Assembly: GCA_002433895.1 (NCBI GenBank)
Contig: DJJA01000005.1
Span: 3,883 to 67,882 of the forward strand
Direction of reading: 5' to 3'
Origin: Candidatus Gottesmanbacteria bacterium UBA6580
GTDB taxonomy: Bacteria; Patescibacteriota; Microgenomatia; UBA10105; UBA927
Length of the DNA stretch: 64,000 bases
The first letter of the stretch is position 1, and every line of letters starts with the position of its first letter. Made by a program: the position numbers and the translations under genes. Below, piece after piece: positions 6,592 to 36,281 of the stretch. Under the pieces are notes generated by a model. It had not been told where the DNA came from. It worked only from the letters and a program-made list of their open reading frames with translations, and did not search any database.

Positions 6592-6609
6592 CAGTTAATA
6601 GTTAATGGT

Positions 6610-7932: not shown

Positions 7933-7936
7933 CGAA

Positions 7937-10900
7937 ATGGCAAATTTTGTCCACTTACATGTCCACAGTGAATTTTCCCTTCTCGACGGGCTTGGGAAAC
8001 TGGATCAATTAATAAACCGCACCAAAGAGCTCGGGATGGACACACTCGCCATCACCGACCATGGCGCGATGTATGGGAGCTTCAAGTTTTATCTCAAGGC
8101 CAAAGCCGCGGGTATTAAGCCCATTATTGGCGTGGAGACATACGTCGCCCGCAGAAGCCGTTTCGACAAAGAGGGAAAAATAGATACCGATCCATATCAC
8201 TTAGTGTTGCTTGCCAAAAACGAAGTAGGATACCGCAACTTACTCAAGCTTGTTACCCAGGCGCATTTGGAAGGATATTATTACAAACCACGCATTGACT
8301 GGGATTTGCTCAAGGATCACCATGAGGGGCTTATTGCGTTTTCATCGTGTTTGGCGGGGCAGGTACCGCAGCTTTTGATGCAGGATAAGCTCAAGGAGGC
8401 AGAGGAAGTCGCGAGTAAATACGCGGAACTATTTGGGCCCGATCACTACTACATAGAGTTGCAGAAGCACCCCAATATCCCCGAAATTGAGGAAACGAAT
8501 AAAAAACTCGTCGCTTTGTCGCGGAAACTCGGCCTTCCCTTGGTCGCGACCAATGACGTGCATTATGTAAATGCCGATGATGCCGAAGCTCAGGAAATTC
8601 TTCTCTGTGTGCAGACGCAGCGCACCATAGTCGAAAAAAACCGTCCGCTTTCCATGATGAGCTCGCCGGATTTTTATCTCCGGAGCCCGGAAGAAATGAC
8701 CGAACTTTTTATGCAGTATCCCGAAGCCATAGAAAATACGGTAAAAATCGCCGCCATGTGCGACATTACGCTTTCGGTGGGGAAGTGGATTTTGCCTAAA
8801 TTCCCGGTGCCCAACGATGATAAGCCGGAAGTGTATCTGCGGGCGCTTGTCGAGGAGCGGTTGCCAAACCGTTACAAAAACGTCACGGACGAGATTAAAG
8901 AGCGTATCAATTATGAGTTGGATATTATTACCAAAAAAGGCTATGCCACCTATTTCCTGATCGTTTCTGACTTTGTGAATTGGGCAAAAAGCCAAAAAAT
9001 CGGCGTGGGACCGGGGAGAGGTTCAGCAGCTGGGTCAGTTGTTTCCTATATTTTGGGTATTACCGGTATCGACCCGTTGTTTTTCCATTTGCCGTTTGAA
9101 CGTTTCCTAAACCCGATGCGGCCGAGCCCTCCGGATATTGATTTGGATTTTGCCGATGACCGCAGGGATGAAGTCATCGCCTATGTGACCCAGCGGTACG
9201 GTGACGACAAAGTGGCGCAGATTATCACCTTCGGCACCATGGAGGCGCGCGGAGCAGTACGGGACGCGGGGCGCGCGTTGGGTATGCCCTACGCCCAACC
9301 CGACCGGATATCCAAAATGATCCCTCCCGGTGCACAGGGAGCAGGTATGACGATAGATAGGGCTATTGAGATTTCCCCGGAGCTATCCGCCGCTTACCGT
9401 GCTGAACCAGAGACAAAGCGGCTACTGGATGTTGCCCGAAAGCTTGAGGGAGTGGCACGCCATGCGTCAGTGCATGCGGCGGGCGTGGTGATTGCAGATA
9501 AGCCGCTTGTGGAATACACCCCGCTGCAGCGCGAAAGCAAGGGTGATCGGGTCGTTACCCAATACGACATGTATACGGTGGGTGAAGACGGGGTGGGACT
9601 TTTAAAGATGGACTTTTTGGGACTGCGGAACTTAACTATCATGGCGGCCGCCCTAAAGTTTTTGGAGCAGACAAAAAACTTAGCTATCGATTTGTATTCC
9701 CTGCCGCTGACGGATAAAAAGACATTTGAAATGCTGGCAATCGGGGAGACCACCGGAGTATTTCAGCTTGAGTCTGCGGGCATGCGTCGCTACATAAAAG
9801 AACTCAAACCCACGACTATCTACGATCTCATGGCCATGGTCGCGCTGTTCCGGCCGGGGCCTATGCAGGTGATCCCGCAATACATCGCCCGGAAAAATAA
9901 TCCCAAGAGTATTACCTATCCTGATCCGCGGCTTGCTGACGTCCTCAAGCAATCATACGGACTTATTTGTTATCAGGACGATGTATTGCTTACGGCTATT
10001 ACACTCGCGGGCTACTCATGGGGCGACGCGGACAAACTCCGGAAAGCAGTCGGTAAAAAAATTCCGTCAGAGATGAAAAAGCAGCAGGAGAAGTTTATCC
10101 AGGGATGTGTGAAAAATGGCATGACGCAGTCAAAAGCCGAGGAGGTTTTCCACCTCATCGAGCCGTTCGCGGGTTATGGATTTAATAAAGCGCACGCGGC
10201 GTGTTATGCCGTTATCGCGTATCAGACCGCGTATCTTAAGGCAAATTATCCCGTCGAGTATATGACCGCGGTGTTGACCGCCGAGTCCCGGGCAAACACC
10301 GGCGATACCAGGGATGAAAAAATTGCCATGATTGTTGCCGAGTGTAAACGGACGGGCATTACGCTGCTCCCTCCAGACATTAACAAGTCTGATATAGAAT
10401 TTAGTATTGAAGACGGAAAGGTGCGGTTCGGGCTCTCGGCTATCAAAAATGTCGGGGAAGCAGCGATTGAAAGTATTTTGAAAACCCGTGTGAGCGACGG
10501 AGTCTTTACGTCATTTACCGATTTCCTCCGCCGTGTCGATGTGTCCAAGGTAAACAAAAAAACATTGGAAAGTCTTATCCGTACCGGGGCTATGGATGCG
10601 TTTGGTTCCCGGGCAGCAATACTGAGTACGCTTGAGACAAAGCTTGCGCAGGTGCACAAAGACCGGAAAGCCGCATCGCTCGGACAGACCGGTTTATTTG
10701 ATGTCGGCGACCCCAAAGAAGCCGCGCATCATGATCATCTCCCCAACATACCCGAGCTCACCAGCCAGGAGCTATTGGCGTTTGAAAAGCAGTTACTCGG
10801 GTTTTACCTGACGGCGCATCCTCTCGAAAAGGTGATGGAGCGGTTCAGTACTATGGACTCGGTTACACCCATTGCCCAGGTTACGGAAGAGCGTGTCGGC

Positions 10901-11167
10901 GACCGGGTGCAAACGGTCGGGATGGTGGCGCAGGTGAAGAAAATTGTGACCAGAAACGGCGGCAGCGAGATGGCATTTATCCGGCTAGAGGATCTGTCCG
11001 GAAATATCGAAGTTGTGATTTTTCCCAAGATTTATGCGCGTACTTCACAAGTATGGGTACGCGATGCGGTGGTGATGATCGCAGGAAAAGTTGATCAGAA
11101 AGACGACCGGTTGGTGCTCCTTGCGGATGAGGTGCGCCCGGTAGACACCCGGAGCACACTGGCGTAG
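7937..11167 (+). CDS. dnaE: DNA polymerase III alpha subunit
   Basis: PHP domain start (FVHLHVHSEFSLLDG), a polymerase core of about 1,080 aa, and a C-terminal OB fold. The start is placed at the ATG at 7937, just after the gatB stop. Confidence 0.9.
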   Translation: MANFVHLHVHSEFSLLDGLGKLDQLINRTKELGMDTLAITDHGAMYGSFKFYLKAKAAGIKPIIGVETYVARRSRFDKEGKIDTDPYHLVLLAKNEVGYRNLLKLVTQAHLEGYYYKPRIDWDLLKDHHEGLIAFSSCLAGQVPQLLMQDKLKEAEEVASKYAELFGPDHYYIELQKHPNIPEIEETNKKLVALSRKLGLPLVATNDVHYVNADDAEAQEILLCVQTQRTIVEKNRPLSMMSSPDFYLRSPEEMTELFMQYPEAIENTVKIAAMCDITLSVGKWILPKFPVPNDDKPEVYLRALVEERLPNRYKNVTDEIKERINYELDIITKKGYATYFLIVSDFVNWAKSQKIGVGPGRGSAAGSVVSYILGITGIDPLFFHLPFERFLNPMRPSPPDIDLDFADDRRDEVIAYVTQRYGDDKVAQIITFGTMEARGAVRDAGRALGMPYAQPDRISKMIPPGAQGAGMTIDRAIEISPELSAAYRAEPETKRLLDVARKLEGVARHASVHAAGVVIADKPLVEYTPLQRESKGDRVVTQYDMYTVGEDGVGLLKMDFLGLRNLTIMAAALKFLEQTKNLAIDLYSLPLTDKKTFEMLAIGETTGVFQLESAGMRRYIKELKPTTIYDLMAMVALFRPGPMQVIPQYIARKNNPKSITYPDPRLADVLKQSYGLICYQDDVLLTAITLAGYSWGDADKLRKAVGKKIPSEMKKQQEKFIQGCVKNGMTQSKAEEVFHLIEPFAGYGFNKAHAACYAVIAYQTAYLKANYPVEYMTAVLTAESRANTGDTRDEKIAMIVAECKRTGITLLPPDINKSDIEFSIEDGKVRFGLSAIKNVGEAAIESILKTRVSDGVFTSFTDFLRRVDVSKVNKKTLESLIRTGAMDAFGSRAAILSTLETKLAQVHKDRKAASLGQTGLFDVGDPKEAAHHDHLPNIPELTSQELLAFEKQLLGFYLTAHPLEKVMERFSTMDSVTPIAQVTEERVGDRVQTVGMVAQVKKIVTRNGGSEMAFIRLEDLSGNIEVVIFPKIYARTSQVWVRDAVVMIAGKVDQKDDRLVLLADEVRPVDTRSTLA

Positions 11168-11191
11168 TGTATTTATTGACGATCAAAAGTA

Positions 11192-11536
11192 TTGTGGGAT
11201 ACAATAATTATGGATAATACAAAGGAAGAGTTAGTTACATCTGAGGAAGAGTTTGATGTTATCTTAGAAGATGTTGAGACCGGTATCCGCCCACGGAAAG
11301 TGAAATCGGTAGAAAAAAAGAAGACACGAGGCGGCGGGTGGGAATATGCAGGGATTGCCGGGCAGATAGGATTTGAGATAGCATTACCAATGGTATTGGG
11401 ATTGGTCATAGGTACGAAGCTCGATGAGCGGTGGGGTACGCGTCCGAATGTGACGCTTATTTTATTTAGCCTCGGGTTAGTGCTCGCATGTACATCACTG
11501 ATACGTATTGTCCGGGAGGTTCTTGGTAAGCGATAA
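11192..11536 (+). CDS. small two-TM protein, AtpZ/AtpI-like, leading the ATP synthase operon
   Basis: Two hydrophobic helices. It sits where atpI/atpZ genes sit, upstream of atpB. Confidence 0.4.
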   Translation: MWDTIIMDNTKEELVTSEEEFDVILEDVETGIRPRKVKSVEKKKTRGGGWEYAGIAGQIGFEIALPMVLGLVIGTKLDERWGTRPNVTLILFSLGLVLACTSLIRIVREVLGKR

Positions 11537-11563
11537 TTGCCGGATAGATTTTATTTTTAGGGC

Positions 11564-12490
11564 ATGACGTTACATATATCATTAGCAGCTGAACGCTTAT
11601 GGACAGTCTGGGGACTGCCCATTTCTAATTCGCTTCTCACCGCATGGGTAGTGATGGGGTTACTCATCGTACTATCTGTTCTTGCTACCCGGAAGCTCAC
11701 CATGGTGCCCAGCACCGGTCAGTTGATTGCAGAAACGTTGGTGGGTGGATTGCATGACTTTTTTGGCGCCATCGCCGGCAAGCGTCTCGATCAATTTTTT
11801 CCGCTTATCGCGTCATTGTTTATATTTATTCTCGCGGCGAACTGGGTAGGACTACTGCCGGGTGTTGGTACGGTAGGTTATTTCCGTTCGGAAAAAGCGG
11901 AAGCAGCGGTAGAACAACAAGCAGCCGTTATACCAGGTGCCGAAGTGGCAGTTCCTACCGAGGAAGATAGCCATGCGCCTGCCGCGGGTACAGTTGCCGA
12001 AGAAACCACCGCGTCTTCCGCCGCCGCAGCGACAAAAGAAGAGGATGGACACGGAAAAACCGCCTTTGTCCCTATTCTCCGCGGAGCGACCGCTGATTTA
12101 AATATGACGCTTGCACTCGCGGTTGTCGCAGTGATTGCCATGCAATATTTCGGTTTCCGTAATCTTGGTGCGCATTATCTCGGGCGGTTTGTCAATTTCA
12201 AAGACCCAATACTATTTAGCGTCGGTATCCTGGAGCTTGTTTCGGATATATCAAAGGTTGTGTCATTCGCGTTCCGTTTGTTCGGTAACATATTTGCGGG
12301 TGAAGTCCTGCTTGCTGTTATCGCGTTTCTTATGCCGTTTTTCCTGCCATTACCGTTTTTGATGCTCGAGTTGTTTGTCGGCGTTATCCAGGCATTGGTG
12401 TTTTCAATGTTAACAACCGCATTCTTGAACGTCGCGGTGTCACACGGAGAAGAAGAGCACGCTGCAGCTGAGCACCATGCATCAGCATGA
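11564..12490 (+). CDS. atpB: F0F1 ATP synthase subunit a
   Basis: Conserved C-terminal subunit-a region (…FRLFGNIFAGE…LFVGVIQALVFSMLT…). It also contains an Ala/Glu/Thr-rich low-complexity insertion. Confidence 0.85.
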   Translation: MTLHISLAAERLWTVWGLPISNSLLTAWVVMGLLIVLSVLATRKLTMVPSTGQLIAETLVGGLHDFFGAIAGKRLDQFFPLIASLFIFILAANWVGLLPGVGTVGYFRSEKAEAAVEQQAAVIPGAEVAVPTEEDSHAPAAGTVAEETTASSAAAATKEEDGHGKTAFVPILRGATADLNMTLALAVVAVIAMQYFGFRNLGAHYLGRFVNFKDPILFSVGILELVSDISKVVSFAFRLFGNIFAGEVLLAVIAFLMPFFLPLPFLMLELFVGVIQALVFSMLTTAFLNVAVSHGEEEHAAAEHHASA

Positions 12491-12587
12491 TGCATATTGC
12501 GCAAATATAGATTGAAGGTATACTTATAAACATTAATCGCTGGGGAATGATAAAAATTCCGAAGCAAAAAAGGGGGTGAGTTAGAAA

Positions 12588-12815
12588 ATGGATGAAGCAT
12601 CAATTCGTATTGTTATGATGGGTTTGACCGTAGCACTTGGTGGATTAGCACCAGCTATGGCCATCGGTTTACTCACCGGTAAAGCATTGGAAGCTATGGG
12701 TAGAAACCCCGAAGCTTCTGGAGAAATCCGGACAACCATGATTTTGGGAGTGGCTTTTGCAGAAGCAATTGCTATTTACTCACTCGTCATCGCGTTGATT
12801 ATTAAGTTTGTATAA
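12588..12815 (+). CDS. atpE: F0F1 ATP synthase subunit c
   Basis: 75-aa hairpin proteolipid with the conserved carboxylate helix (…GVAFAEAIAIYSLVIALII…). Confidence 0.85.
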   Translation: MDEASIRIVMMGLTVALGGLAPAMAIGLLTGKALEAMGRNPEASGEIRTTMILGVAFAEAIAIYSLVIALIIKFV

Positions 12816-12838
12816 GGTTTGTAGAAGGAATAGATACC

Positions 12839-13354
12839 ATGGAAAAATTAGGTATAGAACCATCGTTGTTGTTGGCACAGGTCGTCAATTTTTTGGTGAT
12901 CATGGTTGTGCTGCAGAAGCTTCTCTATAAGCCAATTCTCACTATGTTGGAGAAGCGGAAAAAAGAGATTGCCGAAGGGTTACATCTGACGCAAAAAATG
13001 CGTGAGGAAGAAGAGCGCCTCAAAGAAAAGCAGGAAAAGGCGCTCGCCAAAGCCCGTGAGGACGCGCTGCAGATTATTGAAGACGCCAAGAAACAGGCAA
13101 AAGAAACAGAAAAAGAGTTGGTCGCCGAAGCACATACACAGGCGGCTGCTATTATCGCCCGTGCAAAAACTGAGGCTGAGGAGACCAAAAATGCGGCAAC
13201 CTCTGCTATCCGGCGTGAAGCAGTCGATTTGGCGGTCGTAATGGCAAAGCGGTTACTTACCTCTGTCATGGGGGTAAAAGAGCAGCATGCACTTATTTCC
13301 AAACGCGTCAAAGACCTGGAGAGTTGGGTCGCACGGGAGGAAAAAAAGTCCTGA
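12839..13354 (+). CDS. atpF: F0F1 ATP synthase subunit b
   Basis: N-terminal TM helix followed by a long charged coiled coil. The operon position fits. Confidence 0.8.
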   Translation: MEKLGIEPSLLLAQVVNFLVIMVVLQKLLYKPILTMLEKRKKEIAEGLHLTQKMREEEERLKEKQEKALAKAREDALQIIEDAKKQAKETEKELVAEAHTQAAAIIARAKTEAEETKNAATSAIRREAVDLAVVMAKRLLTSVMGVKEQHALISKRVKDLESWVAREEKKS

Positions 13355-13379
13355 TAAAGGGCTATTCATAGAATACTGT

Positions 13380-13733
13380 ATGAAATCTGTTTCCAAAGAT
13401 GCTCGAGGATTTGTGGAAGGGGTAATTAGCCATCTGAAGCGTGGCAAATCGGGTAATGTTGCCCCGAAAGTGCAGTCATTGTTACTTAAAATGACGGCCA
13501 CCGCCAAACACGAACATCAGGCAAAAGTCGAGTCCGCGGTGAAACTGACAAGCGCTGAGATTCAGGCGATTGCCCGGGTATTATCGAAAGTCGCCGGACA
13601 CGAAGTGAGTCTGACGGCGGAAGTAAATCCCGCGCTTATCGGTGGACTGCGCATTACGATGGCAGATTGGGTGATGGATTCTAGTATCCGCAATGAACTG
13701 AAAGAAATGGCATCAATAGTTACTGTTTCCTAA
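13380..13733 (+). CDS. atpH: F0F1 ATP synthase subunit delta (short form)
   Basis: It lies between atpF and atpA and ends with the delta C-terminal motif (…LIGGLRIT…). At only about 117 aa it lacks most of the usual N-terminal domain. The start is set at an internal ATG, because the longer ORF would overlap atpF. Confidence 0.6.
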   Translation: MKSVSKDARGFVEGVISHLKRGKSGNVAPKVQSLLLKMTATAKHEHQAKVESAVKLTSAEIQAIARVLSKVAGHEVSLTAEVNPALIGGLRITMADWVMDSSIRNELKEMASIVTVS

Positions 13734-25778: not shown

Positions 25779-26423
25779 ATGGCAAAAAAGACACAGAATC
25801 TAAACTCAAGAAAACTGATCTATTTGTTCCTATTTATAGTAATCCTCGGGTTAGGTTCGCTTCTGTGGTACAGAAACTGGCAAAGTAAGTTTGAAGCTCC
25901 CAGACACAATACTCAAATGGTCGAGTTCACTATCAGTAAAGACAAGACTTTGGACACTGTCATTGGCGACCTTCAGTACTACGACTTCATTAAAGACAAA
26001 GAAGCATTCAGATATGCTTTGGAACACGCAAAAGATACGAACCCGGGCAAAGATAGTTCACTAAAGATTGGAAATAATACCATTGATCGAGAAGCGAGAT
26101 ACTCTATCTCCCAAAGTATGACTGCTTGGGAAATAGCTGATGTTTTAGTTAACAAAGGTGAATATAGTCCATGTAATCATGGATGTCCTGATAGCGCATT
26201 TAACCCAGAATTAGTACCCGGTGGAGATTTAGCTCCTACTTTGAAAGAAAAATACTCTTGGGTCAAAACTTACGAAGATTGTACAAAAGCCATTGGTCAC
26301 GACGGTGGTCAACTCTCGTCAGAACAGTATTACCAAAGGACTGGAATAAGACGATGTGTGGCTCCTGACGGACGAGAATTTACAGAGGGTAAAGAGGGCT
26401 GGTCAGATGTTCCTACTCCTTAA
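25779..26423 (+). CDS. hypothetical membrane-anchored protein
   Basis: 214-aa ORF with an N-terminal signal-anchor helix. It converges on, and overlaps by 4 nt, the last gene of the candidate defence operon. It is AT-rich. Confidence 0.35.
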   Translation: MAKKTQNLNSRKLIYLFLFIVILGLGSLLWYRNWQSKFEAPRHNTQMVEFTISKDKTLDTVIGDLQYYDFIKDKEAFRYALEHAKDTNPGKDSSLKIGNNTIDREARYSISQSMTAWEIADVLVNKGEYSPCNHGCPDSAFNPELVPGGDLAPTLKEKYSWVKTYEDCTKAIGHDGGQLSSEQYYQRTGIRRCVAPDGREFTEGKEGWSDVPTP

Positions 26424-27337
26424 AATTTAATTTTTTGAATCTGAGTGCCAATTTGCTTCCAGGCTTCACCAAATTTAAAGAAATTGTCTGGTAAAGAGTT
26501 TTTCGCATATGGATTGTGGACTATAACGAAGTTACTTCCTAATTTATCAGGTTCTCTTGAACTGTTTAAGATATCCCATGGACAGTAGATCACAGCACTT
26601 ATACCTTCGTAACTGGAATCTCTAAACATAAGCATTTCAACTTCACTGCCACTAACCTTATTGAGTTTATCTCTTAAAGTCCAAGTACTTCCTTCTGACA
26701 TTGAATGAGGTGTAGTTCTTTTTAGAAAAAGAACTTGATGACCGATGGCAAAAAGGCACTTAAGTATCAATGGTATCTGCGCATCCATATGTTCCAATGG
26801 CGATCTATCAATCGCTATAATATACGGGTCACTAGAATTAATATGGCCACTTTTTAAATACGATAAGTACTTTTGATGTTTTTCTTTTAATCCTGCCGTA
26901 AGGCGAAATAGCATTTCTTTCTCAGGGACGTCCATTGCTTTACCGTATTCAATTTCTGGAACCCTATCTTTTCCAGCACCTTTTTCTACCGCAATTGCTT
27001 CAATCCAGACAGTACAATTATTATGAAGGATTTTGAAATCAGGACCAGTATCTTTATGTGTCTGTAAGTTATGACCCCTATTTAGTAACGTCGCTCCAAT
27101 GTGTAGCTCCCATGATCGTTGGTTAAACTGCTTTTTAAATTCGTTTGGAAAATTTGAATCGGCGTACGGTTCATATTGTTTCCAAATAGACTCTAACCAA
27201 TTTCTGAATTCTGGACGAGTTGCCATCGTAGCAATGGCAACATACGTAGGGTGGTAGAAATTAAACTTTTTCTTTAGAGCTGCAAGTTGTTTGCTGTTGG
27301 AGGCAACTCCTAGATTTTCATTAAATAGTTTGGTCAT
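26420..27337 (-). CDS. hypothetical protein (component C of the candidate defence operon)
   Basis: 305 aa. Its start overlaps the stop of the 1,225-aa gene by 17 nt, suggesting translational coupling. No confident domain was found. Confidence 0.4.
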   Translation of the reverse strand: MTKLFNENLGVASNSKQLAALKKKFNFYHPTYVAIATMATRPEFRNWLESIWKQYEPYADSNFPNEFKKQFNQRSWELHIGATLLNRGHNLQTHKDTGPDFKILHNNCTVWIEAIAVEKGAGKDRVPEIEYGKAMDVPEKEMLFRLTAGLKEKHQKYLSYLKSGHINSSDPYIIAIDRSPLEHMDAQIPLILKCLFAIGHQVLFLKRTTPHSMSEGSTWTLRDKLNKVSGSEVEMLMFRDSSYEGISAVIYCPWDILNSSREPDKLGSNFVIVHNPYAKNSLPDNFFKFGEAWKQIGTQIQKIKF

Positions 27338-30300
27338 GATTGTTTTCTATCCATTTTTGCTTAACCTCGTAATATTTAGGGTTACGTCTAATCAAAGAGT
27401 CAAATAGATTGTTAATCTCGTCCTTGTGACCTCGTAAAGATACCAATCTTTCAACGGCTCGATCCAAATCATTAGCTATAAGTACAGGTGCTGGATAATC
27501 GGAAAGCTTACTAAAGTAGAACAAAAACTCATCAACACCTTTATGATCTAATACGGTTTCTAATATCATGCCGTTATAGAAAAATGGCCACCAGTATAAA
27601 TCATGGAGTTTATCTTCTGACCAATTTTCTTGGTAATATTTTGATTCTAAGTCAATACATTTAGTCCATAGTTCGTAACAAATTTCAAAGTGATCAGTAT
27701 GATATTCTTCTATAAAATGATAGATGTCATTAAACACATCATGGTCATATTTAGTCAGAAGCATCGTCATATACTTTGACGATAATTTGATGGCGTCTTC
27801 TAAAGTAATAGCTCCTTTTGTTTCGGAACTCTTCTTTATCTCATCAGGTAACCTTTCTAATTGCCAGGCTAATTGTGCTCGAACTTTAGGATTTCCATTT
27901 TTGAGTTGACTCTCTAGTAGGGATTGTATTTTGGTTTGATCAAATTCCTCAAGCGGTTTCCATTGCCATTTGGGGAAGGCGTTTTGTCTGAATAGAGAAT
28001 AATAGATAAAAAGAGGCAGTATCTCCGAAATTACATCTTCATTATCACTTTTTAAGAACATTTGAATAACCTGCAAAGCCTTATCTGTTCCCAGAGTGCG
28101 GATATATGTAAACACCATTGCTAAATGTTTCGCCACCTGATTTAAGCGGATATTCTCATCAGTAAGCATGTCAAAAGCAAGGCGCTCCATTTCTTCTGCC
28201 AATTCTTCTGACACAAAACGTTCATTTGTCTTCCCAGGCAGGTGTGTGTGTCTGTTTTTAACAAGTTCAATCAGAGGTATACAGCCCTCGGCCCGCACAT
28301 AAAAATTTGAATCGAAACAAAGTATCTTTACCAACCTTAAACACTCAGGAATAATTTCTCTTGCGACTAATTGATCGGCTTCACTAAACGGAACTACTAG
28401 TTTTTGTAATGTCCATGCACAATATCCTCTTACTGTTGCCAATTCGGAAACATCATCACCTGAAGAGACTCTCTTGTGTAAATTAGATTCTCCCTTTGGA
28501 TCATCGGATGTGTTTGAACCATCCTTTGGGGGGTCGCTGTCTAAGATAAATATTTTTGTCATCCATAAGGCATCCTTTTTGTGACCGGCTTTGGCTAGTT
28601 TTTCAGCAAATTGAATTAGTGATTCTCTCGCATATCGATAACTAAATCTTTCTTCTATTGGACTGAAATCCTCTTCAGTTAACAAGTCCACTTGTTTCAC
28701 TTTCTTACCAATCAGATTCGAAAGAAGAGGCTTAACAAAGTTTTCAAAAACAAGCTTGAGAAGCTCTGGATTGTTATCATTTGTTTTGTATAGGCTACTA
28801 CATATAAGAATTTGCTGATTCGTGGTCAAATTAGCTTCTTGATTTACAGCATTTAGCAACGCTAAACCCCTATCAAAATTCTCCTCTAGCACACGGGAAA
28901 GTACTCCAGCAACATCATAGGCATCAAAAGTATCTCGCTTGGCTTTAAAATGATCGCTTTGAATATATGACTCAATTAAATCAATACCTTCAGACTTTGA
29001 CTTAGGATTGTTAATTAATTTCAGTGCACTATCAACAGTGTCCAACTCTCCGTAACTATGGCGTTTCTGATACTCAGGGTTGGATGCCCAGCTCTTTAAA
29101 ATCTCAACTGCGTTTTGACGAATTTCTTGATTGTCACTCTTCGCTGCTAAGTCTGAAACTATTTGTTCAACGAAAACATTGACAGGTAGATCACTAAAAG
29201 CTTTCAAACTGACACTTACAAGCTCCCACTTTTGTTCATCACTATAGCTATCGCTGTTTAGCGACTGAAATATTAAATCGTTTTTCCAGGGTATTCCTTT
29301 TCGCATTTTAATAAAGTCGCTTAATATTTCTCTTGCTTCATTAGAATGACTGCCTCCTTTATATTCCTCCAACAAGATTGGAAGTGAAGCTCGGTTAAGA
29401 AAATCAGGTTTTTGTCTTGTAACATCTTCCGTTTGTCGAGCGATGCAGTTTGAAATTACAAACGACCAGCCAACTTCTTTGTCTTTATATAGTTCTTGAA
29501 GTGCGGGAGTTAATATTTTTACGACAAAATGCTTATCTATAATCGAGAATTCATTCCCAGACTGGCCTATTCCTCCTCCCATGTGTTCCCAACCATCAAA
29601 GCTAATCTTCTTATTGAACCTACGGTAATACTTTTGATATTGATTAGAACATTTATCTTTTAACTCAAGTATCCTCTCAGCTGGATTTGCAATTACAAAA
29701 TCAGCTAAAATCTCGAACAGGCTTGGTGGGGTATAATGCCAAAATTTACCGTCGTCTTCTACGATATTAAAATTGCCTAAAATATAATTAACAATTTCTA
29801 CCTTAAGTTGTTGGACTGAACTTTGTTGGTAAATCTCTTTTAAGAACTTTGAGATTTCCTCGCGCTCCCACGAGCTTTCATCCTTTCTTTCAGAGTACAA
29901 GAATTTTTCAATGCGATATGCATATAGACTCTTCAGGATTCTAAATATTCTTTCAGCATATCTATGGTTTTTTTGGAATATATGTTGGCATAGATCGACA
30001 ATATCTTTTTTAATAAATTCTTCCCTATAATAATTAGCTTCATAGTTTTCAATCGCATTTTCGATGAGAGATAACGAATACTCTTGATTTTCTTGTTGAT
30101 CAATATTTTTTTCTAAAACTTTGAACAACTCTAAAGAAAAAGCACCTCTCAATGTGGCTTTCCATAGTGCATCCCAATCAGCTAACTTCAAATTCTCAAC
30201 GCTTTGTAACTTTTGCAGAACAAAATAATGAACAGATGGATTTACTGGCAAGCGGGCTATCTCATTATTAGCCCTATCTCTTCGGGAGTTGTTTTTTAAG

Positions 30301-30998
30301 TTTTTTATTATTTCCTCAACTCTACTTGTTGTAGTTTCTTTCTCTTCTTCGTACTTGTAGCCTGAATCGTCAAAAAATTGGACTTTCTTGTTATTAATTT
30401 TCTCCAAAATTTCCGATCGGGTCACAATCTTACCCTTCTGAGATCCATGATAAATATCATCAACTAATAATTTCTTTGTCCATTCGTTAAGTTGATGCGA
30501 TGGTAGCCAAAAATTTCCACCAATATTTAACACTTGAGCCATCAAAACAAGTATTCCCTTGTCATTTATCTCTTGAGGAACCTCCCAAATCTTTAATCGC
30601 GGGAGGAGTGATATATGCTCATCAGTAAATTTATGTACACTGTTTTTTAATTCTTTTTGTAACCTACCACCAAAATACTTAAAATTCTCAACTGCTCCCT
30701 TAACATCAGGATTAATCTGCTCAGTAATTATTAGTATTTCGTCATTTTTGGAAATTTGTTTATGTTTAGAAATAGTTTCTAAAATCTCACGAATATTATG
30801 CCACTCCAATGGAACGCTCCTATATTTGGATTCACAAATTATCCTTTTCTCATCAAAAACAAGAACAAAATCTTCAAGCTTAGACTGTTCAAGCTCAATC
30901 TGTTTAAAATCGGGTCGGGTGAGATATTGTAAAAACAACGATAGCCCAGCTGCCGCTTGTGCGTTTATTCCTTTAAATGTTGATTTTCCTGATGACAT
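27321..30998 (-). CDS. giant protein (component B): PD-(D/E)xK nuclease-like (Cap4/DUF4297-like) N-domain plus a roughly 1,000-aa HEAT-like repeat array
   Basis: 1,225-aa uninterrupted ORF. The N-terminus (KGINAQAAAGLSLFLQYL … EDFVLVF … ICESKY) is paralogous to the upstream 289-aa protein. The C-terminal two thirds hold repeated xxVRxxAxxxLxxL-type HEAT signatures (NFYVRAEGCIPLIELV, NPKVRAQLAWQLERL, ATVRGYCAWTLQKLV). No Walker A motif is present. Confidence 0.5.
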   Translation of the reverse strand: MSSGKSTFKGINAQAAAGLSLFLQYLTRPDFKQIELEQSKLEDFVLVFDEKRIICESKYRSVPLEWHNIREILETISKHKQISKNDEILIITEQINPDVKGAVENFKYFGGRLQKELKNSVHKFTDEHISLLPRLKIWEVPQEINDKGILVLMAQVLNIGGNFWLPSHQLNEWTKKLLVDDIYHGSQKGKIVTRSEILEKINNKKVQFFDDSGYKYEEEKETTTSRVEEIIKNLKNNSRRDRANNEIARLPVNPSVHYFVLQKLQSVENLKLADWDALWKATLRGAFSLELFKVLEKNIDQQENQEYSLSLIENAIENYEANYYREEFIKKDIVDLCQHIFQKNHRYAERIFRILKSLYAYRIEKFLYSERKDESSWEREEISKFLKEIYQQSSVQQLKVEIVNYILGNFNIVEDDGKFWHYTPPSLFEILADFVIANPAERILELKDKCSNQYQKYYRRFNKKISFDGWEHMGGGIGQSGNEFSIIDKHFVVKILTPALQELYKDKEVGWSFVISNCIARQTEDVTRQKPDFLNRASLPILLEEYKGGSHSNEAREILSDFIKMRKGIPWKNDLIFQSLNSDSYSDEQKWELVSVSLKAFSDLPVNVFVEQIVSDLAAKSDNQEIRQNAVEILKSWASNPEYQKRHSYGELDTVDSALKLINNPKSKSEGIDLIESYIQSDHFKAKRDTFDAYDVAGVLSRVLEENFDRGLALLNAVNQEANLTTNQQILICSSLYKTNDNNPELLKLVFENFVKPLLSNLIGKKVKQVDLLTEEDFSPIEERFSYRYARESLIQFAEKLAKAGHKKDALWMTKIFILDSDPPKDGSNTSDDPKGESNLHKRVSSGDDVSELATVRGYCAWTLQKLVVPFSEADQLVAREIIPECLRLVKILCFDSNFYVRAEGCIPLIELVKNRHTHLPGKTNERFVSEELAEEMERLAFDMLTDENIRLNQVAKHLAMVFTYIRTLGTDKALQVIQMFLKSDNEDVISEILPLFIYYSLFRQNAFPKWQWKPLEEFDQTKIQSLLESQLKNGNPKVRAQLAWQLERLPDEIKKSSETKGAITLEDAIKLSSKYMTMLLTKYDHDVFNDIYHFIEEYHTDHFEICYELWTKCIDLESKYYQENWSEDKLHDLYWWPFFYNGMILETVLDHKGVDEFLFYFSKLSDYPAPVLIANDLDRAVERLVSLRGHKDEINNLFDSLIRRNPKYYEVKQKWIENNHDQTI

Positions 30999-31000
30999 AT

Positions 31001-31867
31001 TTATTCTGTTAAACTTCTATTTGCTATTGGTAAAGTTGGCTGACGAGTCCACCATTGATTGAACTTAGATTGAACAACCGTTTTGATTTCACCTTTTTTC
31101 TGCTCTACTGCCGTAGGCCTCGGGTAATGCTCACTAAATAACTTTCGCATAGTAATATATTCGATAAGCGAGTCCTGGATTATAGGAACAACATCCTCCC
31201 CACTGCCTGACATCCTAACTAGGTGATATAAAAGATTGTGAAATAGAATTTCCTTGGGATATTCATAGTTGGTGGAGTCTGCTCCAAGTTCACTGATTAA
31301 ACTTTCAATTTCCTCTAAAATTAACCCCTCCAGCTGAGGATCATCTGGAGACTGAAGCGTATTACAATCTGCCGGAAGATCTTCGATCTTAATTTGGGAG
31401 CAAAAAACATGAACACTTCTCTGGTCGGGGAATACTTCTTCTTCATGATTTAGTTTATCCATTAACCATTGAGCTGAATTATGTGCTCTATCTGAATTTA
31501 GTATTTTGTACCTTCGTAGAATCGTCAAATGGCTCCAGTATTCCGAAATTGTAGGCAGGTATCCATGATTCATATATAAGTGTAGCTTAACTGTGGGAAA
31601 CGAAATACCATAAGTATGCAAATCAAGCATTGAACTGGCGATTTCCACCTCATCATCCTTAAACGTTTCACCAGTTTTAATCTCATAGACTTTTTCTTCA
31701 CCGCCAACCCTTGTTAGCAATCGGATATCCAATGATTTTTGGTCAGCTAGAGGATAATCGACGAAAAATGAAGTAAGATTTCTGGACCTAAAGTGTTTCA
31801 AAAACAAATATAATGCAACCTTATCTTGGTAATGGAATCCTTTTCTGGTAGCAAATATTGTTGACAT
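31001..31867 (-). CDS. PD-(D/E)xK nuclease-like (Cap4/DUF4297-like) protein (component A)
   Basis: 289 aa from the ATG at 31867. The N-terminus (RKGFHYQDKVALYLFLKHF … LDIRLL … EEKVYEIKTGE) carries D-(hydrophobic)n … E-x-K motifs and matches the N-terminus of the 1,225-aa protein. Its stop lies 2 nt from the start of the next gene. Confidence 0.45.
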   Translation of the reverse strand: MSTIFATRKGFHYQDKVALYLFLKHFRSRNLTSFFVDYPLADQKSLDIRLLTRVGGEEKVYEIKTGETFKDDEVEIASSMLDLHTYGISFPTVKLHLYMNHGYLPTISEYWSHLTILRRYKILNSDRAHNSAQWLMDKLNHEEEVFPDQRSVHVFCSQIKIEDLPADCNTLQSPDDPQLEGLILEEIESLISELGADSTNYEYPKEILFHNLLYHLVRMSGSGEDVVPIIQDSLIEYITMRKLFSEHYPRPTAVEQKKGEIKTVVQSKFNQWWTRQPTLPIANRSLTE

Positions 31868-31868
31868 A

Positions 31869-32051
31869 TTATCGATTGAGTAGCTTAAGAACTTCTTCTT
31901 TATTGTATTTTCTATCCTTACGTGCCCCAAACCTCACGGCCTTGAGAATACCCTTCTTGTCCCACTGCCTCAGGGTATTGGGGTGAACTTTGAGGAGCTC
32001 ACAGGTCTCCTTCATTGTCAGTAGTTCTGGTAATTGCGTGTCTTTTTTCAT
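31869..32051 (-). CDS. AlpA/excisionase-family HTH DNA-binding protein
   Basis: 60 aa (…LLTMKETCELLKVHPNTLRQWDKKGILKAVRFG…), an HTH_17-type prophage regulator. Its stop lies 1 nt from the start of component A. Confidence 0.6.
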   Translation of the reverse strand: MKKDTQLPELLTMKETCELLKVHPNTLRQWDKKGILKAVRFGARKDRKYNKEEVLKLLNR

Positions 32052-32108: not shown

Positions 32109-32942
32109 ATGGAAGACAAATATATCCTTACTAGCAAAAACTTTGAAGACTGGCGAAACTATTTATTGGTTAATAGCTTCTTTTTTGATGTGTTGATGAG
32201 AATAATACGACGTGATCTTGGTCTTCCAGAGAATGGCATAAAAGATCTAGAGGAAATGATTCGCTGGGACGGAGAAAGGAAAGATCAAGTTAGACGAAAA
32301 ATTACCCCCACCTCAAAGCGTAAAAAGACCGGAGTTCAAACGGTCAAAGAAATATTTGCCATTGAGGATGAGGTGAGGCGAAAAGCATACCCACAAATCT
32401 GGGAAGCTATCGAAAAGTTTGCTGATTTTAACTTAGACTTTTCACTACTCCACACCTTTGTCTTGGGTAATACAAGAATATCGTTTGGTGGAAGCTCGAG
32501 GGTTTTAATGGTTACATCCCCAAATGATCCAATTCAAGAAACTGGTGTATATATCAAATATTCTCCCGAGCTAAGCGAAAAAGACATCATTGCATTAATC
32601 AAACAAGCACGTGAGTCGTACGAGTCGTTGTTTAAATACAGACACCCATCCGAAAGGACACATGATGAAAATGGTAAGCCGTATATCAAACGTCCGAAGC
32701 TAAAAGTTCGCCAAAGGAAAGTGTCCCAACCAACCAAAGAACAGCTAAAAATTTTCGAGTCAGTAGAAAATTGTCTAAAAGAAGATTATTCCTCCAGAAC
32801 CGATTCGATAAAAATGCAAGTTGTTTTTGAACTGGTTGCCACCAAATTAAAGAAAAATATGAACTCGGTTCAGCGAACATACCACGCCATTTTGAGAAAC
32901 TACAATTTACCTACAAGTGTCGATACCCGCAATATTTTCTAA
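32109..32942 (+). CDS. hypothetical protein (phage-associated)
   Basis: 277-aa basic protein divergently transcribed from the HTH gene. No motif recognised. Confidence 0.3.
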   Translation: MEDKYILTSKNFEDWRNYLLVNSFFFDVLMRIIRRDLGLPENGIKDLEEMIRWDGERKDQVRRKITPTSKRKKTGVQTVKEIFAIEDEVRRKAYPQIWEAIEKFADFNLDFSLLHTFVLGNTRISFGGSSRVLMVTSPNDPIQETGVYIKYSPELSEKDIIALIKQARESYESLFKYRHPSERTHDENGKPYIKRPKLKVRQRKVSQPTKEQLKIFESVENCLKEDYSSRTDSIKMQVVFELVATKLKKNMNSVQRTYHAILRNYNLPTSVDTRNIF

Positions 32943-33009: not shown

Positions 33010-34344
33010 ATGTCAAAAGTATCTATACAAACAGTTGAAGTTCCAATCAATGAATTGGTTCCAGCAGACTACAACCCACGAAAACACGATGAGACTGCTA
33101 CTGAGCAACTGAAACAAAGCATTCAACGATTTGGGTTGGTTGATCCAATAATCGTAAACTCCGCCCCGAGTCGTAAAAATATTATCATCGGTGGGCACTT
33201 TCGCTGGGAAGCAGCCAAGGAATTAGGGTTTGAGACTGTCCCCGTGGTCTTTGTTGATATTCCAGATTTAGATAAAGAAAAGGAGCTCAATCTCCGCCTC
33301 AACAAAAACACAGGAGAGTTTGATTGGAATCTTCTCGCAAAATTTGATGAATCGTTACTCTCCGAGATTGGTTTCTCTAGCGACGAACTCGATTCTATTT
33401 TTGATCTTGATATCGAACCAGAGAAATTCGATCTGGAAAAAGAACTACAAAAGCTGAACATCCAGAGTATAAACACCAAAAAAGGAGATATCTATGCTTT
33501 GGGTAATAGTCGTCTGATGTGTGGCGACTCCACAGTTGAAGAAAACATATTAGCTCTCATGAATGGGGAGAAAGCGAATATGTGTTTTACTGACCCACCC
33601 TACATCCTCGACTACTTACATGGGAAGAAAAAACATGGAAGTGCAGTAACAGGCTTTGGGGCAAAACGTGACCGCAGATACTTGGAAACAGATGTTCTAC
33701 CGCCCGACTTTACTGAAAAATGGATGAGTAATATTGCCAAAATCCAAAATGAAAGTTTCAGCATCATTGTTTATGAAAATTGGAAGAACCTTCGCACAAT
33801 TTGGGGTGAGATGGAGAAGCATTGGAAGGTCAAAAACATGATTGTTTGGCACTTGCCCAATCGCCATCAAGGGTTTTCCGCCAAGTATAAATTCTTTTCA
33901 AAACATGACATTGCTATGGTTGGGGCAAGCCCAGACAAAGATGTTGAGTTCAACATGGAGCCAGAAGCAGACGGTCTTCAAGAGGAGTACGAAACCGCTC
34001 TATATGCCATTTCCGGCAAGCCACAATGGGAAGGTTATCAAAAAGGCAAGAAAAACCAACCAACTGATCATATCGAGTATGTAGCGTCCGACGAAAAACA
34101 TTCTGGTCAAGGAATTATCTTTGGTACAAAACCAATTGAAATCCTTATTCCTTACATCAAAGTCCTAACTAAACGCGGTGACCTAATAGTTGAACCTTTC
34201 TCAGGTAGTGGAAGCACGTTAATTGCGTCAACCAAAATGAAACGCAGGTGTTACGGAATGGAAAAGTCTCCCGTTTATGCGGAAGTCATCATTAAACGTT
34301 GGGAAAAGATAACGGGACAGAAAGCAAAGAAAATATATGGATAA
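33010..34344 (+). CDS. ParB-like nuclease domain / DNA (N6-adenine or N4-cytosine) methyltransferase fusion
   Basis: N-terminal ParB/Srx-like region (…LVPADYNPRKHDE…GLVDPIIVN…GGHFRWEAAKELG…), then MTase motif IV DPPY (CFTDPPY) and motif I (FSGSGST). This is an architecture typical of phages. Confidence 0.75.
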   Translation: MSKVSIQTVEVPINELVPADYNPRKHDETATEQLKQSIQRFGLVDPIIVNSAPSRKNIIIGGHFRWEAAKELGFETVPVVFVDIPDLDKEKELNLRLNKNTGEFDWNLLAKFDESLLSEIGFSSDELDSIFDLDIEPEKFDLEKELQKLNIQSINTKKGDIYALGNSRLMCGDSTVEENILALMNGEKANMCFTDPPYILDYLHGKKKHGSAVTGFGAKRDRRYLETDVLPPDFTEKWMSNIAKIQNESFSIIVYENWKNLRTIWGEMEKHWKVKNMIVWHLPNRHQGFSAKYKFFSKHDIAMVGASPDKDVEFNMEPEADGLQEEYETALYAISGKPQWEGYQKGKKNQPTDHIEYVASDEKHSGQGIIFGTKPIEILIPYIKVLTKRGDLIVEPFSGSGSTLIASTKMKRRCYGMEKSPVYAEVIIKRWEKITGQKAKKIYG

Positions 34345-34756
34345 CACAATTGAAAAACGCCAAATCAAAAACAAAGAATTATTGTTGGAGCAACTCAAAA
34401 AGACTCCAGTGGTTCAGATTGCCTGTGAGAAAGCAGGAGTCGGCAGAGCTACTTACTATCGCTGGCGTAAGGAAGATCCAGAATTTACTAAAGCTAGTGA
34501 CCAGGCATTGCTAGATGGCAACCTCCTTGTGAATGATATGGCTGAAAGCCAAATGATGAGCGCTATCAAAGATAAAAATATGACGGCTATTATTTTTTGG
34601 CTCAAGCACCATCACCCAGCCTATGCTACCAAAATAGAAATCACTGCCACAAATAAGAACCAGGATATCGAACTCAGCGATGAACAAAAAGCGTTATTAA
34701 ACAAAGCCTTAGAAATGGTGGCATTGATGCCGCCAGAAAACGAAAACCATGAATGA
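34337..34756 (+). CDS. terminase small subunit-like HTH protein
   Basis: 139 aa with an N-terminal HTH (…VVQIACEKAGVGRATYYRWRKEDPEFTK…). It overlaps both the MTase gene and the large-terminase gene. Confidence 0.45.
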   Translation: MDNTIEKRQIKNKELLLEQLKKTPVVQIACEKAGVGRATYYRWRKEDPEFTKASDQALLDGNLLVNDMAESQMMSAIKDKNMTAIIFWLKHHHPAYATKIEITATNKNQDIELSDEQKALLNKALEMVALMPPENENHE

Positions 34757-36281
34757 CCATCAAGAAATCATTAAATTAGTCCAGATTGACTCTAATTTTA
34801 GAAGAGCTTTAACTCGGGAAAGTTTTTCTTGGTTTTTCATTACCTACTTCACCCATTACATAACTTGTCCGACTGCGCCCTTTCAGAAAGAGATATTTAA
34901 CCTCCTGCAAAATGATGGGTTGTTAAAGGTAGCGGTAACAGCTTTTCGAGGTTCGGCAAAATCCACTATTGCCAGTCTCGCATATCCAATCTGGGCAATG
35001 GTTGGTAGACCCGCCAAGAAATATACATTAGTAGTCAGTCAAACTCAGGATTTATCAAAACAAATACTGACCAACATTAAACAGGAGCTTTCATCAAATG
35101 AATTATTAATTCGAGACTTCGGACCTTTTAATGAAGTGGCTGATGAGTGGCGATCTAATTCATTCGTGATTCCTCAATTTAATGCTCGTATTTCTGCCAT
35201 CTCTCAAAGCGAAAGCATTCGAGGTTTACGTCACTACCAATATCGACCAGATTTAATCGTCATTGATGACGTTGAGGATTTGGAATCAGTTAAAACCAGA
35301 GAGGGTCGAGACAAGGTATGGAATTGGTTTACAGGCGAGGTTATGCCTATCGGTGATCTTAATACCAAGATAGTCATTATTGGCAACCTCTTACACGAAG
35401 ACTCTCTCATGATGCGACTTAAGGAAAGTATTAATAATGGAAAAATGGATGGAGTTTACAAAGAGTATCCACTGCTTGATAAAAATGACAATATCGCTTG
35501 GCTGGGTAAATATCCTTCGATGATGCATATAGAAACCAAACAAAGACAGGTAGCTGATGAATCTGCCTGGTATCGTGAGTATTTGCTTAAGTTTATCTCT
35601 GACGATAAAAGAATTGTGCAAAGGAGTTGGCCACAATTTTATGATAAGTTGCCAGATCTACGACATTATCGAATTTTAGGCATTGGAATTGATTTGGCGA
35701 TATCGGAGAAAAGTAGTGCAGATTTTACCTCCCTTGTTCCCTTTATTGTCATAGGCTATGGGGATGACCTAAAAATATATATCCTTCCATATATCGTAAA
35801 TAAGCGAATGAACTTTCCCGATACGATTTTAGAAATTAAAAGAGTTAGTGCCGTTTTAGAACAAGACTACAAACGAGTACCTACGGTTTTAGTTGAAAAT
35901 GTAAGCTACCAAATGGCAGTCGTTCAACAATTAACTATTGAAAAAATATTAGCAGAACCAGTTGCGATATCCGGCATGAATAAACAGACAAGGTTAGAAA
36001 TGGCCACGCCATATATCAGACAAGGTAAAGTTCTGTTCCCACAAAAAGGTGCAGAGTCTCTCATTAGTCAAATCGTAAATTTTGGCATCGAAAAGCATGA
36101 CGATCTGGTTGATGCATTTACCATAATCGTTTTGAAAGTCTTGCAGTCTGACAGACCAACCTATAAATCAAATGGCCCTACCGAGCCACCAAGGGATCGT
36201 TGGGGAATAGATCCATTCACTGGAGAGTACCGAAACTTAGACGCACCCATCACCGCAGGGATGTGGGGTAAAAGATTTTAA
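34749..36281 (+). CDS. phage terminase large subunit
   Basis: 510 aa. It has a Walker-A-like AFRGSAKST, an ATPase-coupling region (…LIVIDDVED…), and a C-terminal RNaseH-like nuclease region (…GIGIDLAISEKSSADFT…). Confidence 0.7.
   Translation: MNDHQEIIKLVQIDSNFRRALTRESFSWFFITYFTHYITCPTAPFQKEIFNLLQNDGLLKVAVTAFRGSAKSTIASLAYPIWAMVGRPAKKYTLVVSQTQDLSKQILTNIKQELSSNELLIRDFGPFNEVADEWRSNSFVIPQFNARISAISQSESIRGLRHYQYRPDLIVIDDVEDLESVKTREGRDKVWNWFTGEVMPIGDLNTKIVIIGNLLHEDSLMMRLKESINNGKMDGVYKEYPLLDKNDNIAWLGKYPSMMHIETKQRQVADESAWYREYLLKFISDDKRIVQRSWPQFYDKLPDLRHYRILGIGIDLAISEKSSADFTSLVPFIVIGYGDDLKIYILPYIVNKRMNFPDTILEIKRVSAVLEQDYKRVPTVLVENVSYQMAVVQQLTIEKILAEPVAISGMNKQTRLEMATPYIRQGKVLFPQKGAESLISQIVNFGIEKHDDLVDAFTIIVLKVLQSDRPTYKSNGPTEPPRDRWGIDPFTGEYRNLDAPITAGMWGKRF

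Follow-up and report, generated by a model that had tools for sequence, protein, structure and literature searches.

A candidate two-gene conflict module pairing Cap4-like nucleases with an NTPase-free HEAT/ARM solenoid

Most modular immune sensors of prokaryotes that carry a Cap4-type nuclease need an ATPase or a second messenger, as seen for Avs (STAND), Lamassu (SMC), Hachiman (helicase), DUF4297-HerA and CBASS. A locus in the window analysed here, a stretch of 64,000 nucleotides from Candidatus Gottesmanbacteria bacterium UBA6580, raises the question of how such a nuclease might operate when it is joined to a repeat array alone. Gene B (27321..30998, minus strand) is an intact open reading frame with an ATG start and a stop codon at 27321..27323, whose 1,225-residue product begins with a Cap4-type nuclease head that a hinge connects to a HEAT/ARM solenoid body. 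The original prediction of a nuclease-like head fused to some 1,000 residues of HEAT-like repeats without an NTPase is borne out by the reading frame, its homologues, the predicted fold, Pfam searches and a Walker A scan. With the neighbouring nuclease gene A, B looks like an undescribed anti-phage-type module that occurs mainly in uncultured bacteria. We lean towards a reading in which the two genes form an NTPase-independent conflict module, most likely directed against phages or other mobile genetic elements, with the solenoid serving as a sensor-scaffold that carries its effector at the N-terminal end.

Architecture of the gene B product

B is a real conserved gene, as indicated by 85 full-length homologue clusters (26-61% identity) and by the 515 cluster representatives recovered in an exhaustive profile search. 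The family occurs in Patescibacteria (CPR), uncultured Proteobacteria and some archaea, and all of its members are of metagenome or MAG origin; searches of cultured plasmids, phages and IMG/VR gave zero matches, as did a comparison of B with PADLOC-DB, and these points weigh against the conflict-module reading.

The head (residues 1-215; 30354..30998, minus strand) is apparently an active Cap4-type PD-(D/E)xK nuclease, and as judged from family conservation and the predicted model it would cut DNA. Its fold is an alpha-beta-beta-beta-alpha-beta restriction-endonuclease-like core with the helical elaboration specific to Cap4, and the D...(D/E)xK catalytic residues expected of this type are conserved. 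E37, D43 and E56 are invariant in all 81 members aligned, K58 is retained in at least 90% of them, and in the model these predicted catalytic residues (codons within 30825..30890, minus strand) map to strands beta1-beta3. Pfam PF14130 (Cap4_nuclease) gave no match above its gathering score with either whole B or residues 1-240, while hhalign of the head against class-II A proteins (described below) gave a probability of 71% (E 3.6e-5).

The body (residues 216-1225; 27324..30353, minus strand) makes up the family's conserved core. In a full-length AF2 model with a pLDDT of 86.5, the region from about residue 216 onwards is 71% helix and 1.5% strand, with tandem antiparallel helical hairpins stacked into a superhelical solenoid, and its structural matches are exclusively HEAT/ARM solenoids. 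The repeats thus fold as originally proposed. At the sequence level no HEAT-family Pfam model exceeds its gathering score in the window protein (HEAT_2, 20.4 against 27.7; HEAT, 12.8 against 23.5); across 41 family members, matches at E<=0.01 were obtained for HEAT_2 in 10, HEAT in 8 and Cnd1 in 4.

A degenerate STAND or AAA+ domain concealed in the middle of B would make the protein a divergent Avs-like sensor, a reading that fold, Pfam and Walker A evidence together effectively refute. We found no alpha/beta nucleotide-binding core in the model, no NTPase folds among the structural matches of B, and no NTPase Pfam families in any of the 41 members. The Walker A pattern [AG]xxxxGK[ST] occurs in only one of 81 members, at a site that is not conserved, and the N-terminal SSGKST, already discounted as a P-loop in the original prediction, is confined to the window protein among the 81 members scanned. 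B was accordingly rejected as a STAND, AAA+ or P-loop NTPase sensor.

The solenoid is conserved to a fairly even degree along its length and has loop motifs that are invariant; GWEHMGGG (469) and PDFLNRA (531) are among the invariant patches of the body. Some phage-protein sensors have a hypervariable pattern, and the uniformity seen here counts against the reading we prefer: it could mean that the ligand is itself conserved, or even that the solenoid has a catalytic or binding pocket that has escaped recognition.

Gene A and the head/body junction

Gene A (31001..31867, minus strand) encodes a 288-residue stand-alone Cap4-like nuclease (class I) and ends 2 nt before the start of B. Its true start is probably M22 of a 309-residue TTG-initiated frame (31001..31930), and public assemblies call the 288-residue form. 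Window A matches PADLOC LmuA at E 8.7e-5 and, by hhalign, the Cap4_nuclease-positive class II at a probability of 90% (E 1.5e-6), with no PF14130 match above the gathering score; class-II proteins are the only A proteins to pass that model (29.1 bits against a 26.2 cutoff), with five matching members. R8, G10, Y13, Q14, D37, D47 and K64 are invariant in the class-I family (n=7). Two of the seven orthologues are substituted at predicted catalytic positions, a point against our preferred reading.

The A genes of other loci fall into several classes: SLFN_AlbA_2 (9 loci, with the Pfam model matched in 8 of 25 non-duplicate A proteins scanned), Cap4-like I, Cap4-like II, a weakly Mrr_cat-like class of about 200 residues, one of about 360 residues, and CHAT. 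These classes are dispersed across the B tree. From such sequence comparisons, the A family appears to be exchanged freely between B loci, and A to be an exchangeable partner effector of B. The A classes were compared for a common docking motif and none emerged, which again tells against the module as we read it.

Whether A belongs with B at all is the point on which one rival turns. B might be a self-contained sensor-nuclease, the main idea of the original prediction, and A an independent nuclease of the same defence island; defence islands do pack unrelated nucleases tightly (gene C, below, is a case in point), B has an apparently active nuclease of its own judging by its conserved residues, and the most distant homologue (P0085) stands alone. 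Four of 29 non-redundant loci carry B without A, so A is not obligatory. Against this, an A gene adjoins or overlaps the B start in the other 25, in a fixed position with the two genes overlapping by 4 to 8 nt or separated by 2 nt, and when an A profile was used as the query, B lay directly downstream in all 15 informative, independent loci. Relatives without a head, and relatives whose body carries a fused A-type protein, also speak for a connection between the two, and we consider the independence of A unlikely.

These relatives converge on the hinge at the head/body junction (residues ~211-265; 30204..30368, minus strand), which has a low pLDDT (51-67 over residues 211-260 in the AF2 model) and behaves as a swap point. 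In head-less and alternative-head relatives the profile match begins at about residue 200-240, so that the hinge marks both where head-less relatives start and where alternative heads are fused. About 20 of the best 150 representatives are head-less bodies. All four that were examined keep a coupled upstream effector, whether a class-I A protein (E 4.5e-52), a Cap4-II-like protein or CHAT. In P0174 the Cap4 head is replaced by a complete class-I A protein (E 4.6e-53), and this fusion locus has no coupled gene upstream; in P0159 and P0172 it is replaced by the ~360-residue A class (E 2e-15 and 1e-11). Some B relatives have HTH_3 fused N-terminally.

It had also been suggested that A might be recruited to B through the domain they share. 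The partnership itself stands, given the 25 of 29 loci, the reciprocal search and the A-type fusions to the solenoid. The proposed route is not supported: window A and the B head are, by sequence comparison, only remote relatives within the Cap4 superfamily (BLASTP E 0.14; hhalign probability 63%, E 7e-5), the solenoid also pairs with AlbA_2/Schlafen, Mrr-like and CHAT proteins, and head-less solenoids take A-type partners too.

Genomic setting and known systems

The window operon runs HTH-A-B-C within an island of 36-37% GC, set among core genes of 47-50% GC, and adjoins a ParB-methylase and a terminase. Directly upstream of A lies a 60-residue HTH_17/MerR-type gene (31869..32051, minus strand; HTH_17 was matched by Pfam in the identical gene of locus L001), a possible operon regulator whose membership in the module is uncertain. 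Gene C (26420..27337, minus strand), which overlaps the stop of B by 17 nt, encodes a 305-residue protein similar to PD-T7-5 (PADLOC E 9e-22, residues 29-252 against positions 14-233 of the 346-position model) and PD-T7-1 (E 1.1e-13). We rejected C as a component of the A-B system: no homologues were found in the other ~57 loci, and the genes 3' of B are heterogeneous between loci.

In a plain tally of 137 neighbouring ORFs from 24 loci, made without a formal null model, the top families were DNA methylases, ResIII, serine recombinases, SWI2/SNF2, Eco57I/MmeI and type I/III restriction-modification. B loci also lie near ICE/T4SS genes, integrases, Shedu and PemK. Such surroundings, with loci on ICEs and prophage-like islands bearing recombinases, would also suit a toxin-immunity or addiction module in which A is the toxin (a nuclease, RNase or protease) and the HEAT protein a neutralising antitoxin or immunity protein, stabilising a mobile element with no phage sensing. 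This account fits the pairing of a variable enzyme with a conserved binding protein, the close translational coupling of their genes and the common use of HEAT/ARM scaffolds to bind and mask enzymes. It leaves unexplained why B should have an invariant nuclease active site of its own and be found without A, or why A-type domains should be fused to the body, which would place toxin and antitoxin in one polypeptide; an antitoxin of 1,000 residues with conservation extending from CPR bacteria to archaea would also be atypical. We regard an addiction function as quite improbable. In practice it overlaps with abortive-infection defence.

Among established systems, the module is closest in logic to DSR2, which we take as the best functional analogy for B. 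DSR2 comprises SIR2 and an alpha-solenoid HEAT-like sensor with no NTPase, and its solenoid captures the phage tail tube protein to activate the effector (PMC11850899). Both are single polypeptides of about 1,000 residues in which an effector enzyme at the N terminus precedes a long HEAT-like alpha-solenoid; B, however, has a Cap4-type nuclease where DSR2 has a SIR2 NADase, no Pfam or PADLOC match to SIR2 or Dsr was found in B, and DSR2 is not among its top structural matches. The earlier premise that repeat sensors normally come with an NTPase switch therefore overlooked an existing precedent (PMC11850899), and its description of ABC-3C C-components as repeat sensors was imprecise, LmuA being an effector with a helical C-terminal domain.

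In Avs7 and Avs3, a repeat lobe sequesters the Cap4 domains and tetramerisation activates them (bioRxiv 10.64898/2026.01.04.697583). These are single-gene systems that have TPR repeats and oligomerise by means of a central STAND NTPase, whereas A and B are two genes, the repeats of B are of HEAT/ARM type and it has no NTPase. Among Cap4/DUF4297-DUF1837 effector nucleases, Lamassu LmuA needs the SMC-like ATPase LmuB (with LmuC) and Hachiman HamA the superfamily-2 helicase HamB; the A-B operon has neither kind of gene, its constant partner being the ATPase-free solenoid. Lamassu was rejected on the absence of an ATPase from the operon and of LmuB-like neighbours from homologous loci, with the A-LmuA match no better than that given above, and Hachiman on the absence of a helicase from the operon, a PADLOC HamA match being seen only for the A protein of locus L004 (E 3.4e-4). 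Upx (Gao_Upx) resembles B in size, PD-(D/E)xK nuclease content and two-nuclease logic; it is a 1,212-residue single-protein dual nuclease whose middle domain auto-inhibits until relieved by a phage protein (PMC13099982).

HEAT scaffolds also organise nucleases in housekeeping processes, as Symplekin and INTS4 do for CPSF73 and INTS11, or engage DNA as in AlkD-like proteins, so that B might instead act in the repair or recombination of DNA or in RNA maturation. The likeness of B to Symplekin, Integrator INTS4, CAND1 and karyopherins is generic to solenoids (7-14% identity, TM 0.1-0.3) and points to neither common ancestry nor a shared function. We think a housekeeping role very unlikely.

Proposed mechanism and significance

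Bringing Cap4-type domains together is what activates the Cap4, Avs3/Avs7 and LmuA nucleases. By analogy, and returning to the two-gene module that we prefer, we infer a defence function, physical contact between A and B, a trigger and a mode of activation as follows. The effector, an enzyme degrading nucleic acid or protein, would be attached at the N-terminal end of the solenoid, either covalently, as B's own Cap4-type head or as an A-type domain in some relatives, or as a separate protein encoded by the upstream gene, to which B is translationally coupled. The window has both forms, the fused head and the separate A, which are two different Cap4-like nucleases. At rest the solenoid would keep the nuclease or nucleases inactive via the flexible hinge. 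Binding of an infection-derived ligand, for which a phage protein or an aberrant nucleic acid is a candidate, would provoke a conformational change or oligomerisation, bringing Cap4-type domains together as in the systems just named, and DNA would then be cut without an ATP/GTP switch, as in DSR2.

More tentatively, and with somewhat less than even confidence, the solenoid may represent an unrecognised class of NTPase-free immune receptor-scaffold in Patescibacteria, uncultured Proteobacteria and archaea, with a fixed N-terminal port for interchangeable effectors, fused or separate (Cap4-like, Schlafen/AlbA_2, Mrr-like, CHAT). In the window subtype, head and A might form a hetero-oligomeric nuclease that fires only on an infection cue.

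In this family a 1,000-residue HEAT solenoid takes the place of the ATPase of other Cap4-type immune sensors. With fused heads, no head, alternative fused heads and at least six kinds of separate partner, it amounts to a natural experiment in modularity, and its fused and head-less forms allow the hypothesis that A docks on B to be tested directly. To our knowledge, few defence systems have been characterised in CPR/Patescibacteria and these archaea. If A-B is a defence system, it would add an ATP-independent activation logic for Cap4-type nucleases and a second example of HEAT-like pattern recognition, unrelated to DSR2, and it would give CPR/Patescibacteria and some archaea a candidate immune system.

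Gene B and its operon

Gene B (27321..30998, minus strand) is an uninterrupted ORF of 1,225 codons with an ATG start, encoding a Cap4-type nuclease head, a hinge and a long solenoid body. The gene is real and conserved: 85 homologue clusters, annotated as 'hypothetical' or at most 'HEAT repeat domain', share 26-61% identity with B and cover 95-100% of its length, the one exception being a truncated 1,058-aa entry (86%). When 1.84 billion representatives were searched exhaustively with a profile, 515 relatives emerged, of which 308 scored E<=1e-30.

The minus-strand operon runs in the order HTH_17 gene, A, B, C. Gene A (31001..31867, minus strand) encodes a Cap4-like nuclease of 288 aa counted from M22, the mechanical ORF opening at a TTG at 31930, and B starts 2 nt past it. 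Directly 5' of A lies a 60-aa HTH_17/MerR-like gene (31869..32051, minus strand). Two distant relatives, P0162 and P0178, carry HTH_3 fused N-terminally to full-length B, and these fusions, together with the HTH_17 gene, hint at transcriptional autoregulation or DNA tethering. A search of the operon for promoters and terminators gave sites no more often than in shuffled sequence.

Gene C (26420..27337, minus strand; 305 aa) overlaps the stop of B by 17 nt and matches the single-gene PADLOC defence models PD-T7-5 (E 9e-22) and PD-T7-1 (E 1.1e-13); a Pfam relative was not found, and neither A nor C has a sequence relative in the PDB. We considered C as a third component of the system and ruled this out, as the genes 3' of B are heterogeneous (Cas4-like, NERD, DUF2779, resolvase, TspO and T5orf172) and none of the other ~57 loci has a homologue of C near B. 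Gene C is best read as an independent defence-type gene adjoining B.

A HEAT-type solenoid with no NTPase

The structural model of B (residues 1-1200) has a mean pLDDT of 86.5. Past residue 215 it contains approximately 53 helices (71% helix), with strand limited to two short hairpins (1.5%). A P-loop alpha/beta core cannot be accommodated. Across 41 diverse members, Pfam detected HEAT_2 in 10, HEAT in eight and Cnd1 in four, and NTPase families in none. Of 81 members, just one has the Walker A pattern, at a site that is not conserved, and the SSGKST at the N-terminus of the window's B is likewise not conserved among the 81. The fold, Pfam and Walker A results thus bear out the original prediction of a nuclease head joined to a HEAT array with no NTPase: a degenerate STAND/AAA+ fold was looked for in the middle region and did not emerge, and with an all-helical model and HEAT_2, HEAT and Cnd1 matches, the repeats do not belong to a type other than HEAT/ARM.

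Conservation is uniform along the length of the solenoid, with invariant loop motifs. The unusually invariant loops are GWEHMGGG (469-476), PDFLNRA (531-537), MRKGIPxKxDLIFQ (565-578) and FINDPDP (817-823), all four kept across CPR bacteria and archaea, and VRGxCAW (856-862) is a further invariant loop; the stretch from residues 467-476 to 817-823 corresponds to about 28530..29600 of the window. This invariance exceeds the needs of a plain scaffold, and the loops could form a ligand-, DNA- or effector-binding site.

Both parts of B, the Cap4-type nuclease and the HEAT solenoid, belong to kinds already known, and neither PADLOC, Pfam nor NCBIfam contains the family as such. Assignment to a known system was attempted and rejected: PADLOC and NCBIfam returned no match, and the B profile retrieved only alphaRep (E 0.01) among PDB sequences. 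The architecture is undescribed in the literature searched, which covered Cap4/DUF4297 with HEAT, PDC-M46 and Schlafen/CHAT/HEAT conflict systems, and partners with HEAT repeats or a solenoid go unmentioned in the bacterial Schlafen paper.

Exchangeable partners and heads

Our examination of loci covered approximately 45 of the 515 family representatives. Among the 29 non-redundant loci having upstream DNA, 25 carry a gene for a protein of ~200-370 aa immediately 5' of B on the same strand, usually overlapping it by 4 or 8 nt, while B stands without a partner in the other four. These partners fall into several classes: Schlafen AlbA_2 (nine loci), Cap4-like I (to which the window's A belongs), Cap4-like II (the sole class to pass Pfam Cap4_nuclease), a class of ~200 aa weakly similar to Mrr_cat and a further class of ~360 aa. 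The classes are intermixed on the B tree, indicating that partners have been swapped repeatedly. The link also holds from the other side. A metagenome scan seeded with the class-I A profile alone found 17 loci, and in all 15 with sufficient downstream DNA, B lies directly 3' of A. The association is reciprocal, and B is one half of a modular pair.

Variant architectures place the point of exchange at the solenoid's N-terminal end. Some 20 of the best 150 representatives, of 950-1,020 aa, start at profile position ~220 and so consist of the solenoid without the nuclease head. Three more (1,270-1,340 aa) have a different N-terminal domain, and two an extra HTH_3. The alternative heads are A-type proteins: that of P0174, a fusion with no coupled upstream gene, corresponds over its full length to the class-I A HMM (E 4.6e-53), and those of P0159 and P0172 belong to the ~360-aa partner class (E 2e-15 and 1e-11). 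The genes found coupled upstream of head-less solenoids encode a class-I A (E 4.5e-52) in a 4-nt overlap, a protein resembling Cap4-II or, overlapping by 8 nt, a CHAT protease that scores 30 bits where the cutoff is 24. In the B model, the point of exchange falls on a hinge of low confidence (residues 211-260, pLDDT 51-67). These Rosetta-stone fusions, with the strict linkage of the two genes, provide the main argument from sequence that A probably works physically with the solenoid at its N-terminal end.

Within a few kb of two head-less solenoids lies a gene for a ~880-aa fusion of a ResIII helicase and an RE_endonuc/TnsA-like nuclease (1..2655 of locus L038 and 6192..8822 of locus L040), upstream of the solenoid in one case and downstream in the other. 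It could be an added component of the head-less subtype, or a coincidence.

As an alternative, the original prediction suggested that A may be recruited through a domain shared with B. This is not supported. A and B match by BLASTP only at E 0.14, and hhalign, which aligns A with the B head in register across 133 columns, gives a probability of 63% and E 7e-5; the two are no more than distant Cap4-superfamily relatives. Furthermore, AlbA_2, Mrr-like and CHAT partners exist, and A also pairs with head-less bodies. HMM-versus-sequence comparison, hhalign and inspection by eye found no C-terminal docking tail common to the A classes, and recruitment through a shared domain is thus not a general rule. 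Within the seven-member class-I A family, an R-G-x-x-Y-Q helix, D37, D47 and K64 are kept, and predicted catalytic positions are substituted in two of the seven orthologues: the second Asp is Asn in the A gene of locus L017 (150..1061), and the Glu of ExK is Ser in that of locus L030 (5090..5995). Some A proteins may be catalytically dead adaptors.

Genomic setting and a proposed model for activation

Carriers of the B family are metagenomic throughout. Patescibacteria/CPR account for half of the 26 genome loci and the remainder come from uncultured Gamma- and Deltaproteobacteria, Armatimonadota, Margulisiibacteriota and Elusimicrobia; archaeal homologues include Heimdallarchaeaceae and Halobacteriota entries. 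PLSDB plasmids, GenBank phages and IMG/VR gave no match in cultured or viral carriers. By raw counts over 137 neighbouring ORFs from 24 loci, the commonest neighbours are DNA methylases, ResIII, serine recombinases, SWI2/SNF2, Eco57I/MmeI and type I/III RM components, and single loci also show ICE/T4SS genes, integrases, Shedu, PemK and ArdA. At locus L010, two tandem ~500-aa MutS_V-domain genes (10628..13661) lie 3' of the A-B pair.

In the window, the operon adjoins a plus-strand stretch (33010..36281) of a ParB_N-N6_N4 DNA methyltransferase fusion (444 aa), a 139-aa ORF and a T7-type terminase large subunit (510 aa). This stretch sits in a low-GC region (about 26-52 kb, GC 0.36-0.43), the GC content over B being 36-37% against 47-50% in the genes to the left. 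Apart from the terminase, no gene was recognised clearly as a phage structural gene, and the stretch has the appearance of an island or of what is left of a prophage or satellite. Between it and the operon, a divergent 277-aa ORF (32109..32942, plus strand), with faint similarity to Fic (E 0.048) and PADLOC Aga_Unknown (E 0.006), is kept in the same position in loci L001-L003. Overall, by these counts, the surroundings of B resemble those of a gene carried in a defence island or as MGE cargo.

Related logic has been described elsewhere. In DSR2, a HEAT-like solenoid captures the phage tail tube protein and SIR2 becomes active without an NTPase (PMC11850899), a precedent for the NTPase-free logic of B. 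In Avs7/Avs3, Cap4 is sequestered by the repeat lobe and activated by tetramerisation (bioRxiv 10.64898/2026.01.04.697583), and in the dual-nuclease protein Upx a phage protein relieves auto-inhibition by the middle domain (PMC13099982).

The folds, the intact predicted active site, the lack of an NTPase and the coupling, swapping and fusion of genes are features of the system as observed, and the mechanism that we propose for them is conditional. Two observations do not fit neatly with it: the missing docking motif common to the A classes, and the uniform conservation of the solenoid, which, with its invariant loops, may reflect a conserved ligand or an unrecognised pocket. In the proposed mechanism, the solenoid would be a sensor-scaffold that holds its effectors, whether tethered or docked, in a silent state. 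An infection-derived ligand would bind the solenoid, and the ensuing conformational change or oligomerisation would juxtapose the Cap4-type domains and so activate them.
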